Assembly (NCBI RefSeq): GCF_000092465.1
Contig: NC_014205.1
Location: 1,290,001 to 1,322,000 of the forward strand
Reading direction: 5' to 3'
From: Staphylothermus hellenicus DSM 12710
GTDB taxonomy: Archaea > Thermoproteota > Thermoprotei_A > Sulfolobales > Desulfurococcaceae
DNA length: 32,000 bases
Positions 6,227 to 30,313 of this stretch are shown in pieces; positions within the stretch are counted from its first letter, which is position 1, and each line of letters begins with the position of its first letter. A program made the translations under genes and the position numbers. A model generated the notes under the pieces. It saw nothing but the letters and a program-made list of their open reading frames with translations, made no database searches and was not told where the DNA came from.

Positions 6227-8440
6227 CTAAACCCGATATGGTAGTCCGCCCATTCTCTTGAGCTCCTTAGCCATTCTCTCATATCTTTCTATATCAGATC
6301 CTGTCAGGCTTGGAGGTACGTGTTTCAATGCTTCTAGGAAGTGTTTCATTTCAACAGGTCTTACTTTGAATTCTTCTCTTAAAGCAAGAATTGCTGCTTC
6401 TCTACAAACTGCAGCTATATCTGCTCCAGTATAGCCTTCAGTTCTTCTAGCTAGTTCTTCTAAGTCTACATCAGGTGCTAAAGGCATTTTCTTCGTGTGT
6501 ACTTTAAATATTTCTATTCTCGCTTTAAAGTCCGGTGGAGGAACATATATTAACCTATCAAATCTACCTGGTCTAAGCAGTGCTGGATCGAGGATGTCTG
6601 GTCTATTTGTTGCAGCTATAACTACTACTTTTCTAAGAGGTTCTATTCCGTCAAGTTCTGTTAATAATTGATTCACTATACGATCTGTGACACCGCTTGT
6701 ATCATGCCTATATCCACGAGCAGGCGCAATCGAGTCTATTTCATCAAAGAATACAACTGCTGGAGCAACTTGTCTTGCTCTTCTAAATATTTGTCTAATT
6801 GCTTTTTCTGATTCTCCTACCCATTTGCTTAGTATTTCTGGTCCTCTAACTGCTATAAAGTTTGCGCCGCTCTCAGTAGCAACAGCTTTAGCCAACAAAG
6901 TCTTACCGGTTCCAGGAGGGCCAAACAGGAGTATTCCCTTTGGGGCTTCAATACCCATTTGTTCAAATACTTCGGGATGCTTCATGGGCCACTCAACAGC
7001 TTCCCTCAATTGTTGCTTCACGTCTTCAAGGCCTCCAATATCGCTCCATCTAACCTCTGGGACTTCGACATATATTTCCCTAATAAGGGTTGGTTGTACA
7101 TATTTCATTGCTTCAAGGAAGTCAGCCATTTTAACTTTTAGATCTCTAAGTTTCTCTGCTGGAATGGATTGTGTTAGATCTATTTTTCCTTCTTTAATGA
7201 ATCTTCTCAGTGCAGCCATTGCTGCTTCTTTAACTAGTGCAGCTAAATCCGCTCCTGTATATCCATGAGTCATTTCAGCGATCTTATCTAGATCAACATC
7301 TTCTTCTAAGGGCATATTACGTGTGTGAACAGCGAGTATTTCTCTTCTAGCACGCTTATCCGGCGGCGGAATCTCTATTTCTCGATCAAACCTACCTGGT
7401 CTACGAAGTGCTGGGTCTAGTGCTTCAGGTCTATTGGTTGCTCCAATAACTATTACTTTTCCACGTTCTTTCAAACCATCCATTAAAGCTAGTAGTTGCG
7501 CCACAACCCTTTTCTCCACTTCACCTGTAACTTCTTCTCTCTTAGGAGCAATACTATCTATCTCGTCTATGAATATTATTGCTGGAGCATTTCTCTCAGC
7601 TTCTTCAAATATTTCCCTAAGCCTCTGCTCTGATTCACCATAGAACTTACTCATTATCTCGGGGCCGTTAATCGCTGTAAAGTATGCTCCAATCTCGTTA
7701 GCTAAGGCTTTAGCCAGTAATGTCTTACCAGTACCTGGCGGACCATGTAGTAGGATGCCTTTTGGAGGCTCTATACCTAGATGTTTGAATAGCTCAGGAT
7801 GTTTTAATGGTAATTCAACTATTTCCCTTATCTTTTGCTTAGCCTCCTCCAGATCGCCTATATCCTCCCAGGTTACTTTAGGTATCATTCTAGCTCTTTC
7901 AATAACTTCCTCCTTAACAGGCTCGCTTCTTATCTGTATCTCTGTTTCATCTGTTACATATACTCTGTATCCAGGCTGTGTAGCTATAACGATGAATTTT
8001 AGGCTCATACCGAATATTGGAATTACTATTTCCTCTCCTCTGCTAATTGGTTTTCTAATTAAGAATTGGCGAACATATTCAACGAAATCCGGGCCGAAAC
8101 GTACAGGTTCTGTTGGTGCTAGAACTACTTTAGTTGCTGGCTCAACACTTGTTTTCTTAACGCTAACTATGTCTCCAACACTAGCTCCAATAGCCCTGCG
8201 TAAATATCCATCCATACGTATTATGTCTTTATCTTCATCTTCGGGATAAGCAGGCCAAACCTGTGCAATAATGCTTCCTCGAGGACCAATAATTTCCACG
8301 AAATCTCCTGTAACAACTCCTAGCCTAGCCATATCGGTTCTACTGATCCTGACAATTTTTCTTCCAACATCTCTTTGTCTCGCTTCCGCAACTCTAAGTC
8401 TAATCTCTCTATTATTATTATTTCTAGGCATAACTTTCAC
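6227..8440 (-). CDS. cdc48: CDC48/VCP-like AAA+ ATPase (two AAA domains)
   Basis: Two Walker A motifs '[13 protein letters not shown]', two '[18 protein letters not shown]' Walker B motifs, and an N-terminal CDC48-type domain. The start is probably ATG at 8431, since GGTGA lies 5 nt upstream. The ORF track uses GTG at 8440. Confidence 0.95.
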
Positions 8441-17291: not shown

Positions 17292-17462
17292 AAAATTATT
17301 TTTTAAGATACAAATGTATTGGTTCACCCAGAATATATTCACTAATTTCTCTAACAGTTTCAGATACGGTCAAATGCGGATAAGGTATACTTGATGCTTC
17401 TTCTAGCTTGATCTTATTCATGATGAAAGGTATAAATGATGATATTACTTCAGAAGCTAATG

Positions 17463-17710
17463 GGGCAGAAAAGTTCAAGTATTCCAGATTATATTTTTCA
17501 ATATTGATCTGTGCCCCTGTGGGTTGATGGGAGCTATGCTCCGAGACCCATAGGGGGCTTGCTGTAGATGGGAGGCCCGTGCCGTTGGCCTCGACAGCCG
17601 CCCATGACCCCACAACCCCCAAGAGAGGAGTTGTGGAAGGAGGCGGAAGTCCCTACTGTGGACATAAATAAACACAGAAATATACAGAATGACACGGTAG
17701 GGACAAACGG
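17463..17710 (+). mobile_element. MITE-like internal-deletion derivative of the IS607-family element at 27747-29737 (left end plus omega-RNA-like right end, no ORFs)
   Basis: 17463-17500 'gggcagaaaagttcaagtattccagattatat' nearly matches 27747-27780 'gggcagaaaagtttaagtatttcagattatat'. 17521-17710 matches 29556-29737, including the identical runs 'ttgatgggagctatgctccgagacccat' and 'ctgtagatgggaggcccgtgccgttggcctcgacagcc' and the shared terminus 'gtagggacaaacgg'. Removing the element restores the lpd frame (GIFVV-(S/AP)LASEVI). Boundaries are +/-4 nt. Confidence 0.85.
17511..17710 (+). ncRNA. solo omega-RNA (reRNA)-like scaffold carried by the MITE
   Basis: Homologous to the 3' end/right end of the tnpB-bearing copy. 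It is G+C-rich relative to its surroundings. It keeps the hairpins GGAGC-tat-GCTCC and GAGGCC...GGCCTC, plus a helix (17610-17616/17630-17636) that covaries with 29645-29655/29660-29670. Confidence 0.55.
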
Positions 17711-18912
17711 AAACAACAAATATACCATATGGAACATTGTTCTTGCCCATTAGGATCTTTACATAGGAGTACTTGCTATCCTTAATCCTAACCGCTGATA
17801 AATGAGATATTGGCATTCTGATTCTACGATATCTTATTCCTTTGCTTCTGAGTTCTCTCTCCGTATAGCCTATCCAAGCAATTTCTAAACCACTAAAAAT
17901 CGTGTGTGGAATTAATTGATAATTCAAAGAAAATGATTCTTCTCCCAGGATATTTCTTGCTGCTGCGATACTTTCAAGAATTGCTTTATGAGCCAGTAAT
18001 GGTTCTCCAATAACATCTCCTACAGCATATATTCTGAGATTAGTTGTCTGATACTTCTCGTTAACTTTAATAAAACCTTTCTGAGTCGTTTCTACATGTA
18101 CTGTTTCAAGACCTATATTCATAGTTTTAGGCTGCCTACCTATAGCCACTAGGACTTTATCGGCTTCGATGATCTTGTCATTTGCTAGTTTAGCTTTCAC
18201 CATGTTGTTTTCGATTGTTATTTTTCAACGATAGAGTTCTCATAGATCTTAACGTTTTTCTCTCTAAGAAATCTTTTCATAGTTAAGCTTATGTCTTTAT
18301 CGAGGAAGGAAAGTATGTTGGGCATTGCTTCAACAATAGTAACATCTACACCTAACTGTGAAAAAGCATATGCAGCTTCTACACCAATAACTCCACCGCC
18401 CATAATTAGTATTTTTCGGGTTTTTCATCCATGTAGAAAATCTCTCTATTACTTAGCACATGTTTACCATCAAAATTCATGATTGGAAGCGGCATGGGAT
18501 CGGTTCCAAGAGCGAGTATAGTGTTCTTGGAAGAAACAGTATTATTGCCTATCTTGATCTCGGCATTTGTTTTTAGAATAGCCTTAGAGTTTATTATGTC
18601 AACACCGTAGCTTTCTAAGAGGTATTCTATTCCATTACGTGTTTTGCTGACAACCGATGATACCCATTTAGATAAGCTACTCCAATCTATATTTGCGTTT
18701 CCGCCTATTTTCTCAATAGTTCGAAACGCTTCAGCAACATTATATAGAGCTTTACTTGGGACACATCCATAGTTTGTACATTCGCCTCCCAGTAAGTGTT
18801 CTTCGATCACAGCAACTTTTAAACCGTGTCTTGCAAGATATATAGCTGCTGGATAACCTCCTACTCCAGCACCTACTACTGCTACATCATACATTACCGT
18901 ATCTCACCAATA

Positions 18913-26078: not shown

Positions 26079-26128
26079 CTATATTTTTCAAATACATAAC
26101 CGCTAAGCCAAAGAATTTATTTATAAAG

Positions 26129-26223
26129 TGGGCCCGCGGGGATTTGAACCCCGGACCTCCGCCTCTCTAAGCCCATACCAGACACGTCAGGGCGGCGTCC
26201 TAACCAGGCTAGACGACGGGCCC
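26129..26223 (-). tRNA. tRNA-Val(GAC) with a 20-nt canonical (37/38) intron
   Basis: The reverse complement folds as GGGCCCG-TC-GTCT-AGCCTGGTTA-GGAC-G-CCGCC-CTGACG[tgtctggtatgggcttagag]A-GGCGG-AGGTC-CGGGG-TTCAAAT-CCCCG-CGGGCCC-A. The BHB is present: central helix CUGA/UUAG flanked by 3-nt bulges CG|U and AG|A. Confidence 0.9.
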
Positions 26224-26478
26224 AAATACTGTTCCTTCTAAACAAGCCCCACCATCTTGTGCCGGGGCTTCACCCATTCATCCACGTATTCCAATCTATT
26301 ATATTGTAGAACACATATGGGTTTATAAAGTGAACTCTAAGCAGACAGAGAAGGTTTCAAACAAGAATGGTTTTTCAAAGTTTCCCGATAACCATAAATA
26401 TCCAAACAAGTGAATGGTTTAAGAACATAGATTATTAAAAACCTTTACGAAAACTTCTAATACAAATAAAGATCATGG

Positions 26479-26642
26479 TGGGCCCGGGGGGATTTGAACC
26501 CCCGACCTACGGGTCACTCCCTCCAGATCCAATTCATTCCTCCCATCGGGAGGTCATATGACCCATAGCAGTGATCTGGAGCTTCGACCACCCCCCTAAA
26601 TAAAGGGGTGTCCGCCGCTCTGCCTGGCTGAGCTACGGGCCC
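26479..26642 (-). tRNA. tRNA-Trp(CCA) with two introns (29 nt at 30/31 and 61 nt at 37/38)
   Basis: Reverse complement: GGGCCCG-TA-GCTC-AGCCAGGCA-GAGC-G-GCGG[29-nt intron]G-CTCCAG[61-nt intron]A-CCCGT-AGGTC-GGGGG-TTCAAAT-CCCCC-CGGGCCC-A. Splicing gives a 74-nt cloverleaf with anticodon loop CUCCAGA and discriminator A73. Both introns have BHB motifs (see findings). The 3' flank reads CCA (26476-26478). Confidence 0.85.
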
Positions 26643-26704
26643 ACCAACAGTCATCTATATATGGGTTATTGTATACTGTGATATAAGGGTTTTTGTGATC
26701 TAGG

Positions 26705-27595: not shown

Positions 27596-27801
27596 TTTTT
27601 ACCCTCCACACGTAAATAAAAATGCTTCCTAAATATTATTAGGTATTTTCAAAATAATATATAATTGTCTGAAGATACCCCGATGAAGAATGAACCCGGG
27701 TAATAACTACTGAACATTTATAGATGTAGACAAGGCCCGCATGAGAGGGCAGAAAAGTTTAAGTATTTCAGATTATATCTTTCTGTATCGGATGATGTTT
27801 T

Positions 27802-28440
27802 GTGTTGGATAGGTTGTTGCCTCCTAGGGAGGCTTGTCGTAGGCTTGGTATTAGCTTTATCACTTTGAAGAGATGAATTTATTCTGGTAAGATACGTGCT
27901 GTCAAGACACCTACTGGTAGGTGGATGATCCCTGAGAGCGAGGTAGAGCGAATTATTGGTGGAAGTGGAGGGCAAGGAGAGGTTAGAGCACTGGTTTATG
28001 CTCGTGTATCAAGTAGTGATCAGAGAAAGGATTTGGAGAAGCAAATAAGTGAACTCATGAAATACTGTTCTGCCAGGGGTTATCGGGTTGTTGATGTTGT
28101 AAGTGATATAGGTAGTGGATTAAAAACTAATCGTAGAGGTTTACTCAAGCTCTTCAAATATGTAGTGGACAGAAAAGTAGACAAGGTAGTTATCACCTAT
28201 AGGGATAGGCTCACCAGATTCGGGTATGAATACCTAGAATACTTCTTTAAAAAATTCAATGTAGATATTGAAGCTATCTATGGCGATGAGCCTAGGGATG
28301 CTAGGCAAGAACTCGTAGAAGACCTCACAGCAATCGTAACATCATTTGCTGGAAAATTATATGGAATGAGGAGCCATAAGAAAAAGAAGCTTGTCCAAGG
28401 ATTCAAACAACTCCTAGAAGAGGTTGAGAGGAATGGTTAG
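27802..28440 (+). pseudogene. tnpA: IS607-type serine recombinase TnpA (MerR-like HTH + resolvase catalytic domain) with an in-frame TGA
   Basis: Catalytic 'ALVYARVSSSDQRKDLEKQ' (Ser nucleophile) and 'VVITYRDRLTRFGYEYLE'. Upstream, the same frame encodes the HTH 'LLPPREACRRLGISFITLKR*IYSGKIRAVKTPTGRWMIPESEVERI'. The stop at 27874-27876 (TGA) sits where a Trp (TGG) is expected. Confidence 0.8.
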
Positions 28441-29642
28441 AGTTACTAGAACAGTTGTGGTTGAATCTACAAGGGTTCCAAGAAAGTTGTTTAGGGTTTT
28501 GGTTGAGGTTGAAGGTATGTATCGCAACATGGTTGAGCAATTAACAATACATGCTGTTAGGAATGGGGCCTCAAGCTTTACAAGGCTTAAAGCACTAAGG
28601 TATCGTGAGCTTAGAAAGCTTTACCCAAAACTACCATCACACTACGCATATACAGCGTGTCAGGACTCCTCAACAAGGGCTAAAAGCTTCCTAAGGTTGA
28701 AGAAGCTTGGATGGGTAAAAAGTGGTTATCCTAGGGTTGAGAGGATATCGATATGGCTCGACGACCACTTGTGGAGACTGGACGGGTATACATCTATTAG
28801 GATAGCAACGCATAGGGGTTGGATAAGGATTGAGTTTGAGCCACACAAACTATACTGGAAATATATTAATAGTGGGTGGAAGCCTGCATCAGAGGCAAAA
28901 ATAAAGCTTGACAAACGTAATAGAAAGATCATAATATATCTAGTACTGGTTAAAGATGTTGAACCATATAAGCCTAAGGGATATATACCAGTAGATGTCA
29001 ATGAGAACAATGTAGCAATGCTAGTTGACGGTAAACCCATCCTGCTCGAAACAGATATGAAGAAGATCACTCTGGGCTACTATTATCGGAGGAAGAGGGT
29101 TCAGGAAAAATATGATAAAACCTATGGTGTAAAATCTAGGACTAAGAGGAAGGTACTGAGGAGACTTAGAGAGAAGAAAAAGAAGCACAGTATTAGGTGG
29201 AAGACAGCAAACATTATCGTGAGGGAAGCCCTTAGGAGAGGTTATGGCATAGCTCTTGAACAACTAGGTAGAAGATCAGCAAACAATATGATTAAGAAGA
29301 TAAGAGATAAACAGTTACGGCACAGGATCTTCCAAGCATCTTTTAGGAGTATCCAGAAGGCTATTGCCGAGAAGGCGCGTGAATATGGTGTTCCAGTAAT
29401 ATATGTTGATCCTAGGAATACTTCGAAAACAATGCCCAATACATAAATCACCAATAATATATAGTAATGGGTCCAGGATTGGGAGATGCAGTACCGGTGG
29501 AGAGCTCTGGCACAGAGACATAGTTGCATGCTATAATATTCTCTCACGCACCCTAGGGGTTGATGGGAGCTATGCTCCGAGACCCATGGGGGTTTACTGT
29601 AGATGGGAGGCCCGTGCCGTTGGCCTCGACAGCCACCCATGA
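28433..29642 (+). pseudogene. tnpB: TnpB (OrfB, RuvC-like RNA-guided nuclease family) with a 1-nt frameshift near 29427
   Basis: RuvC-like D/E/D contexts 'IPVDVNENN', 'IALEQLG' and 'WHRDIVACYNI'. The frame breaks at 'act tcg aaa aca A tgc cca', giving ...YVDPRNTSKT then *. The continuation CPIHKSPIIYSNGSRIGRCSTGGELWHRDIVACYNILSR lies in the +1 frame (ORF 29403-29642). Confidence 0.85.
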
Positions 29643-29737
29643 CCCCATAATCCTCTATCGAGGACTATGGGAGAGGTGAAAGTCCCTACCACAAACAAAT
29701 ACACGAATATACAAAATGATACAGTAGGGACAAACGG
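29550..29737 (+). ncRNA. omega-RNA (reRNA)-like scaffold overlapping the tnpB 3' end and the IS right end
   Basis: The position (tnpB 3' end to right end) matches that of known TnpB guide-RNA scaffolds. It is a G+C-rich block in an AT-rich genome. It contains the hairpins GGAGC-tat-GCTCC, GAGGCC-n-GGCCTC, CCCAT...ATGGG, and helix 29645-29655/29660-29670, which shows compensatory changes relative to the MITE copy. Confidence 0.6.
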
Positions 29738-29740
29738 TAG

Positions 29741-30313
29741 CTATATTATCTCTTTCCATAATTGTCTCATTCTTTTCCTTTTCTCGAGAAATGTTTCTCT
29801 CTCAATATATCTATACACTGTGCTGTGCCTCCTTCCCTCAATTAATAATTCAATAGCTGTTTTCGCGATATTGGCTGATTCAAAGTCACCTATTATTGCA
29901 ACATAGTTTTTATATATTGAAACATATGTTCCAGTCATTTCCTCAATAATCTTGCGTGCTTTTCCTCCTTCACCAATGATTCTGCCCTTGACTCTTTGTA
30001 GATGATTAGGTTTGTCTCCCACATATTGTTTTAAATCAATAATCAACAAGACCTGGTCCTCGTCAAGCAGCCTAAAAGCTCTTTCAGGGCTGAAGCCATA
30101 TGCAATTGCTCTAACAACATCTCTAGCCTTCATTAATTCTAATGCTGTAGTTGTAGGAGATGCTGGCTCTATAATGACTGTTCCCGTCGTGGAATCTATT
30201 GTGATAATTGTCCTAGTTCTACGCATTAACTCCTCCTTAATCTTGCCTTCATGCCCTATCAAAACACCTATTCTATCAGGTGGAACTTTCTCATAAAGCC
30301 TCGTAACACCCAT
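29741..30313 (-). CDS. KH-domain RNA-binding protein (archaeal Dim2/Pno1-like)
   Basis: 'VPPDRIGVLIGHEGKIKEEL' and 'RVKGRIIGEGGKARKIIEEMTG' are two KH GXXG motifs. The gene is last in the aIF1A-Rio1-KH operon. ATG 30313 lies 2 nt after the Rio1 stop, whereas the ORF track uses GTG 30343. Confidence 0.85.
   Translation of the reverse strand: MGVTRLYEKVPPDRIGVLIGHEGKIKEELMRRTRTIITIDSTTGTVIIEPASPTTTALELMKARDVVRAIAYGFSPERAFRLLDEDQVLLIIDLKQYVGDKPNHLQRVKGRIIGEGGKARKIIEEMTGTYVSIYKNYVAIIGDFESANIAKTAIELLIEGRRHSTVYRYIERETFLEKRKRMRQLWKEII

Follow-up and report, generated by a model that had tools for sequence, protein, structure and literature searches.

In a 32,000-nucleotide stretch of the genome of Staphylothermus hellenicus DSM 12710, a hyperthermophile of the order Desulfurococcales (NC_014205.1, positions 1,290,001 to 1,322,000; hereafter the window), we found evidence for a gene-less mobile element lodged in lpd, the gene for dihydrolipoamide dehydrogenase (the L protein of the glycine cleavage system). 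We consider it likely, with a probability of roughly 80%, that this element is non-autonomous and arose by internal deletion from an archaeal IS607-family transposon, normally a carrier of the serine recombinase TnpA and of TnpB, an RNA-guided nuclease, and that its right end has the anatomy of an omega-RNA scaffold. The parts of the locus are listed below; R1 is a covariance model of the right end that is described further on.

17296-18894, minus strand: lpd pseudogene, interrupted by the mini-element and bearing two 1-nt deletions
17462-17465, plus strand: target-derived G-run (T-GGGG), seen in the S. marinus empty site; its last GG is the presumed crossover dinucleotide, and it resembles a target-adjacent motif (TAM) of the form (A/T)GGG
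17466-17710, plus strand: gene-less IS607-family mini-element, left end fused to right end (repeat and S. marinus alignments)
17466-17504, plus strand: left end of about 40 nt (88% identity to 27747-27788; family left-end comparison)
17499-17514, plus strand: deletion junction, where left-end homology passes into right-end-block homology (alignment; AATATT at 17505-17510 equals 29533-29538)
17512-17710, plus strand: omega-RNA-like scaffold of six helices (R1 189.8 bits, E 2.6e-58; covariation; fold z-score -5.5)
17711-17730, plus strand: predicted guide segment AAACAACAAATATACCATAT, encoded by the flank (from TnpB/omega-RNA architecture; homologues diverge right after ...AACGG)

The boundaries of the element were fixed by comparison with the sister species Staphylothermus marinus F1. 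Its lpd DNA is 87% identical to that of the window, and the conceptual Lpd protein of the window is 88% identical to the S. marinus dihydrolipoamide dehydrogenase. DNA alignment of the two loci identified a net insertion of 245 bp (17466-17710), antisense to lpd. S. marinus has a clean empty site, in which ...CTAATGGGG is followed directly by AAACAACAAATA... (junction ATGGGG/AAAC), while at the occupied site in the window ...CTAATGGGG is followed by the element, CAGAAAAG...ACAAACGG, and then by AAACAAC.... A preliminary description of the window, made from its sequence, had placed an element of about 248 bp at 17463-17710. That it is an insertion and not an ancestral segment of lpd is borne out by the empty site in this relative, and only its length has to be corrected. 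Removal of 248 nt drops a Pro codon of lpd; removal of 245 nt yields GIFVVSPLASEV, identical to S. marinus. The remark that the length is 2 modulo 3 holds for 245 as it did for 248. Restoration of the reading frame by splicing, also part of that description, is correct locally and not for the gene as a whole: lpd contains two further 1-nt deletions in A-runs (18412-18416 and 18221-18225), and excision of the mini-element would therefore not restore it.

The origin of the two ends became evident from a full-length but defective relative about 10 kb downstream in the window:

27750-29737, plus strand: defective IS607-family element of full length (net 1,988 bp); the orthologous intergenic site of S. 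marinus lacks it
27805-28440, plus strand: tnpA pseudogene (serine recombinase with helix-turn-helix; PF00239), in-frame TGA at 27874-27876
28433-29727, plus strand: tnpB pseudogene, +1 frameshifts in an A-run (29426-29429) and a G-run (29587-29591), TGA for Trp (WER*KS)
29548-29737, plus strand: omega-RNA-like scaffold of the full element, inside the last ~65 tnpB codons plus 10 nt (R1 186.9 bits)

Repeat finding over the whole window and a three-way alignment matched 17463-17504 to 27747-27788 (42 nt, 88%). The right part, 17515-17710, matches 29551-29737 over about 200 nt in three blocks of 83-93% identity with small indels between them (83.8% across the aligned block); its homology probably starts already near 17505, where AATATT corresponds to 29533-29538, which would bring the retained right end to about 205 nt, this first stretch being weak. 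Both elements share the start GGGCAGAAAAGTT and the end GTAGGGACAAACGG. Missing from the mini-element is an interior of about 1.74 kb, and no open reading frame (ORF) with a family match was found inside 17466-17710. The earlier claims of a shared left end, of a right end matching the 3′ block of tnpB and of the loss of everything between, both ORFs included, thus stand under proper alignment.

Assignment of the full element to the IS607 family is based on its two genes. The tnpA product matches the Pfam Resolvase domain PF00239 (E 2.3e-23), and frame translation showed its in-frame TGA at a position where relatives have Trp; homologues of 211-212 aa contain PF12728 together with PF00239 and are annotated as "IS607 family transposase". 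The tnpB product matches PF07282 (Cas12f1-like TNB domain) and has 1,058 homologues at E<=1e-30, typically of 432-434 aa. The start of tnpB (ATG at 28433) overlaps the end of tnpA (stop at 28440), and in intact relatives the tnpB ORF stops at a TAG within the terminal GTAGGGAC. An empty site for this element, too, was identified in the orthologous intergenic region of S. marinus (junction GGAGGGG/AAAA; CP000575.1, positions ~860-1020 of the retrieved segment L028, compared with window 27740-29745). Both elements of the window are thus specific to the S. hellenicus lineage, or they were precisely excised in S. marinus.

In principle, chance similarity, an assembly artefact or an ancestral lpd segment might mimic such an element. 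Nothing positively supports this, and we regard it as practically negligible in view of two matches, one of 42 nt and one of ~200 nt, that reach 84-93% identity and share exact termini, the covariance-model E value of 2.6e-58 and the S. marinus empty site. Furthermore, the genome was finished at 462x Illumina and 132x 454 coverage, and the two copies differ by about 15% and can therefore not result from mis-assembly of one repeat.

The junctions of the mini-element show neither a target duplication nor terminal inverted repeats. They carry GG at both ends, so that occupied sites read GG-CAG...AAAC-GG. The term MITE (miniature inverted-repeat transposable element), under which the element had been introduced, is therefore not applicable in its strict sense, and the absence of both features is what is expected for IS607 derivatives. 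In all seven family elements for which a left boundary was obtained, (A/T)GGG(G) stands before the CAGAAA... of the left end, and every right end stops at ...ACAAACGG / AACGG. For one IS607-family element, experiments have established a strict GG core dinucleotide and a 5′-TGGG-3′ target that equals the TnpB TAM, a scaffold ending in ...UCGG, whose C at -3 prevents self-cleavage, and a circular double-stranded DNA intermediate; 40 bp of left end and 60 bp of right end suffice for excision of that element (bioRxiv 10.1101/2023.11.20.567912). The GG crossover, the (A/T)GGG target and the scaffold end ...ACGG of the present elements fit these published TnpA/TnpB rules, and NGGG is the likely TAM of these TnpBs. 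With about 40 bp on the left and at least 60 bp on the right, the ends of the mini-element correspond to the minimum that an IS607 serine transposase was measured to need, in agreement with the earlier suggestion that the element has kept the minimum for recombinase recognition.

Comparison of the left ends of seven elements yielded the consensus CAGAAA..TTTAAATA, that is CAGAAA(N)2TTTAAATA, followed by two TKTATC repeats and the tnpA ATG. We take the conserved CAGAAA(N)2TTTAAATA to be a good archaeal promoter with a transcription factor B recognition element (BRE) and a TATA box. Judged by its sequence, the left end of the mini-element appears to hold a BRE/TATA-like promoter of this kind (CAGAAAAG-TTCAAGTA, 17466-17481) as well as two degenerate TKTATC-type repeats, which are putative TnpA sub-sites. 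This left end is kept to about the predicted transcription start and is followed directly by helix 1 of the scaffold, which makes the mini-element look like a promoter-plus-scaffold cassette.

To gather homologues of the right end, an invariant stretch was used as a probe of public genome and metagenome contigs, and plasmids were searched with BLAST. The set comprised sequences from Acidilobaceae (L001), Thermodiscus (L010, L002) and Desulfurococcaceae (L016), three metagenome contigs (L025-L027) and the Pyrococcus abyssi plasmid pGE2 (L030). In the scan of genome contigs with a 20-mer from the RNA core, 13 chance matches in bacteria stood beside 4 true archaeal homologues; viral contigs and a phage collection gave no match. 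Nine sequences were aligned with MAFFT (A3), from which the covariance model R1 was built, and a model-fitted alignment of ten (A5) included the Pyrococcus copy. First six and then all ten homologues were found to end in ...AGGGACAAACGG (...GGGACAAACGG) and to diverge straight afterwards.

In intact relatives the whole block lies inside the last ~65 codons of tnpB, so that constraint from coding and constraint from the RNA had to be told apart. This overlap is also an argument for the view that the block is conserved as DNA only, namely as TnpB C-terminus plus TnpA sites, and that the mini-element kept a long right end by accident and without any RNA function. The sub-sites for TnpA must, by analogy, fall within the last ~60 bp, and at the gathering threshold Rfam had no family for the block (at a permissive threshold only chance-level matches, E>1, were seen in 17300-17900). 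We nevertheless judge this view improbable. On A3, RNAalifold predicted six helices comprising 49 pairs; double compensatory changes occur in 23 of these, and 90.2% of alignment cells were paired, compared with 36-46% when partners were slid by 1-3 columns; none of 500 shuffles reached the observed value. On A5, 93.4% of cells were paired (slid controls, 36-45%) and 25 pairs covaried, and the Pyrococcus copy has swapped a G-C for a C-G pair in the otherwise invariant helix 3. G.U pairs are frequent and strand-specific, which favours the tnpB-sense (plus) strand as the RNA. A 23-nt hairpin (GAGGCC-CGUGCCGUU-GGCCUC) shows no variation, synonymous codon positions included, which coding does not explain, and the gene-less copies in the window and in L002 keep the fold. 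Moreover, an omega-RNA that overlaps the 3′ end of tnpB is, in this protein family, the established arrangement (bioRxiv 10.1101/2023.11.20.567912; PMC10055086).

The loop of the invariant hairpin, CCGUU, is complementary to the 3′-terminal AACGG of the scaffold in nine of ten copies. This pairing shows no variation and is put forward as a candidate 3′-terminal pseudoknot by analogy with other TnpB omega-RNAs, in which such a pseudoknot is essential (bioRxiv 10.1101/2023.11.20.567912). The R1 score of the mini-element (189.8 bits) is close to those of the full element in the window (186.9) and of copies beside an intact tnpB (191-218), and its scaffold is therefore regarded as essentially intact. 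Taken as sequence, the right-end block is strongly supported as having the anatomy of a TnpB omega-RNA scaffold: it lies on the tnpB sense strand, overlaps the 3′ part of the gene and ends exactly at the transposon boundary. The omega-RNA-like nature proposed for it earlier thereby gained support from its position, its exact boundary and a covarying structure.

Gene-less derivatives appear to recur in this lineage. Metagenome contig L027 holds an independent mini-element that joins ~75 nt of left end, the tnpA ATG among them, to ~165 nt of right end. Each of the two parts has its match in the full element on L026, and the deletion has other end-points than that of the window element. On L016 and L002 the right-end block stands solo between genes, with no tnpB beside it; on L016 a decayed left-end-like sequence accompanies it. 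We had considered these solo blocks as a sign of selection on the RNA and dropped the idea, because the search pattern lay inside the RNA core and retention of that core is a matter of ascertainment.

This recurrence bears on a simpler history, in which a complete IS607-family element entered lpd and then suffered the ~1.74-kb deletion, so that the sequence is a one-off relic that never moved as a miniature. Such decay in place is quite possible, although we lean somewhat against it. It agrees with the single copy in the window, with the neighbouring full element, which is decaying too, and with a draft assembly of the genome in only 4 contigs, which suggests few repeats. Against it stand the L027 element with its own end-points and the solo blocks of L016 and L002, which suggest that derivatives arise repeatedly, and the coincidence of the retained left end of ~40 bp with the minimal functional left end measured for an IS607 transposase; both arguments are, however, still compatible with deletion in situ.

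Several observations speak against the interpretation as a mobile, guide-bearing derivative and have to be weighed here. A scan of the 32-kb window with R1 found one single mini copy, and the recurring solo blocks are, as said, no evidence of selection. The mini-element forms 41 of the 49 consensus pairs, the shortfall being in part a misaligned 2-nt insertion. Its TATA-like box is weaker than that of the family (TTCAAGTA versus TTTAAATA), and its TKTATC-type repeats are degenerate. The full element in the window was rejected as direct parent because the two are only ~84-88% identical and because 6 nt of the terminal helix are missing from it but present in the mini-element. The sole tnpA in the window carries a nonsense codon, and none of the 120 top-ranking TnpA homologues, each at least 73% identical, is from S. 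hellenicus. These last two points make present-day mobility doubtful, and together with the further decay of lpd they suggest that the mini-element is today probably an immobile fossil. An intact TnpB paralogue is present in S. hellenicus, namely ADI31435.1 (434 aa, 83% identical), in which the RuvC D/E/D motifs are visible in the sequence.

From the derivative reading a history and a function can be proposed. A full element would have lost its interior of ~1.74 kb, and either the resulting mini-element inserted into lpd or a full copy did so and decayed in place; the insertion itself would have been a TnpA-catalysed recombination at the GG core via a circular intermediate. With the tnpA promoter in the left end and its predicted start near the deletion junction, the deletion would have created a compact promoter-plus-scaffold cassette. 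The transcript would run into the flank and so gain a guide that matches the empty lpd site. Loading of this RNA in trans onto ADI31435.1 is conceivable from the sequences, and the complex would then cut only the excised, empty allele flanked by TGGGG, with AAACAACAAATATACC as the predicted NGGG-dependent target. A cut there would favour retention of the element through homologous repair, which would fit the published model of vacated donor sites (bioRxiv 10.1101/2023.11.20.567912; PMC10055086). More speculatively, the lineage might repeatedly yield such promoter-plus-guide mini-elements as guide-only hitch-hikers, which borrow TnpA to move and a paralogous TnpB for homing-based retention and would be natural IS607 counterparts of the palindrome-associated transposable elements (PATEs) of IS200/IS605. 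We hold this generalisation to be rather unlikely.

A transcript from this locus might also serve the host, as an antisense RNA to lpd or as a trans guide that retargets TnpB to other loci. The antisense orientation would suit such a domesticated or regulatory RNA, and so would a scaffold that scores as well as those beside an intact tnpB. We give this explanation very little credence: lpd is multiply broken already, and there is therefore nothing to regulate; the mini-element is absent from the sister species; the insertion site dictates the guide, which has its sole match in the empty allele; and solo copies show no conserved synteny across the genomes compared.

The proposed derivative has precedents, and the novelty attributed to it in the preliminary description was overstated. 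According to the account of Berkner & Lipps 2007 given in PMC3718332, SMN1 of Sulfolobus islandicus is a non-autonomous element of ~320 bp that is mobilised by the IS607-family element ISC1733 and was seen to transpose. As far as that description goes, SMN1 and the mini-element are both crenarchaeal, gene-less, a few hundred bp long, inserted in genes and reliant on the transposase of an element with orfA (resolvase) and orfB (TnpB). They differ in host (Sulfolobales versus Desulfurococcales) and in that transposition was seen for SMN1 and not for the mini-element; the comparison is one of descriptions only. PATEs, too, are gene-less and "often encode omega-RNAs" for TnpB in trans (Meers et al., PMC10055086). 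They share with the mini-element the minimal two-end design, the guide scaffold in the right end and the predicted need for TnpA and TnpB in trans. However, PATEs depend on a Y1 transposase and single-stranded "peel-and-paste" transposition, with hairpin ends and a TTGAT-type TAM, whereas the mini-element belongs to the serine-recombinase IS607 family with its double-stranded circle, GG core and NGGG motif.

A further parallel is an engineered one. Zedaveinyte et al. (bioRxiv 10.1101/2023.11.20.567912) built a CboIStron mini-IS of left and right end without tnpA and tnpB. TnpA_S supplied in trans excised it, for which 40 bp of left end and 60 bp of right end were enough, and TnpB could draw its guide from it. 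It has a GG core, a TGGG target equal to the TAM and a ...CGG end whose C at -3 distinguishes self from donor joint, features to which the TGGGG target and ...AACGG end found here correspond. The CboIStron construct is bacterial and synthetic and contains a group I intron, whereas the mini-element is natural, archaeal and intron-free and is known from sequence alone. In archaea, sotRNAs/omega-RNAs over tnpB 3′ ends have been described (Rfam RF02656/RF02657; PMC12558985). These are likewise structured sense-strand RNAs within the 3′ part of an archaeal tnpB; they belong, however, to haloarchaeal IS200/IS605-IS1341 types, and their Rfam models do not match the S. hellenicus sequence.

Some further observations were made on relatives of the element. 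In the Thermodiscus metagenome-assembled genome, the solo block of L002 (2360-2620) is followed by CTATTCTAGG, and the same 8-mer CTATTCTA stands right after a TGGGG ~45 nt upstream of the block. This block is a mosaic: its 3′ two-thirds are by eye near-identical to the tnpB-linked L010 copy on the same contig and its 5′ third resembles L001, with 90.4% identity to L010 over the whole block. A weak second R1 match on L027 (3922-4093, minus strand; 23 bits, E 2e-5) possibly represents a diverged omega-like RNA from a different element. On the P. abyssi plasmid pGE2 (L030 1320-3182, NZ_MN477947.1) a member of this IS607/TnpB lineage with a 5′-truncated tnpA and an omega-like block of 208 bits was identified; the plasmid being euryarchaeal, the lineage crosses archaeal phyla, possibly via plasmids. 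Two further elements (L033 1780-3860 and L034 100-2170) encode identical TnpB, and the ~100 nt of right end and right flank that were compared are the same in both, whereas their left ends and TnpA differ (212 aa versus 207 aa with a MerR match), which suggests modular exchange of the left half.

In the surroundings of lpd, gcvT, gcvPA, gcvPB, gcvH and glyA are intact. The four frameshifts of the lpd and tnpB pseudogenes each alter the length of an A- or G-run by one base. Residual homopolymer sequencing error would be an alternative to slippage, which is probably real since the genome was finished at the high coverage given above. The window has a GC content of 37%; the published value for the S. 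hellenicus genome is 36.8% (PMC3236042). The truncated TnpB encoded in the window has a 100% identical counterpart at NCBI under the name of S. hellenicus DSM 12710. Elsewhere in the window, a tRNA-like gene that encodes its CCA and is interrupted by an insert of ~95 nt was seen at 26478-26644 (minus strand; GGGCCCGTAGCTCAGCC...GGGTTCAAATCCCCCCGGGCCCACCA). It was missed by ARAGORN and at the Rfam gathering threshold, with weak partial matches only, and in its 3′ half it shares 85% identity with the tRNA-Val(GAC) next to it, which has a 23-nt intron (26128-26223, minus strand). A 140-nt direct repeat of 70% identity, with copies at 6531-6670 and 7359-7498 (spacing 828 nt), is probably due to paralogous genes in tandem.

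The mini-element leaves the current understanding of IS607/TnpB systems unchanged. What it offers is a natural case, from a hyperthermophilic archaeon, of what experiments in bacteria have defined as the minimal IS607 substrate, namely ~40 bp of left end plus an omega-RNA right end. R1 is a well-supported covariance model for the omega-RNA of a very abundant TnpB lineage of hyperthermophilic archaea (>1,000 TnpB and >2,500 TnpA homologues in public data), an RNA for which Rfam holds no family. The paired empty and occupied sites fix the element boundaries and the likely NGGG TAM, which is useful for trying thermostable TnpBs as editors. If the hitch-hiker interpretation were true, the scaffold of the S. 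hellenicus mini-element could program the one intact TnpB of its genome.

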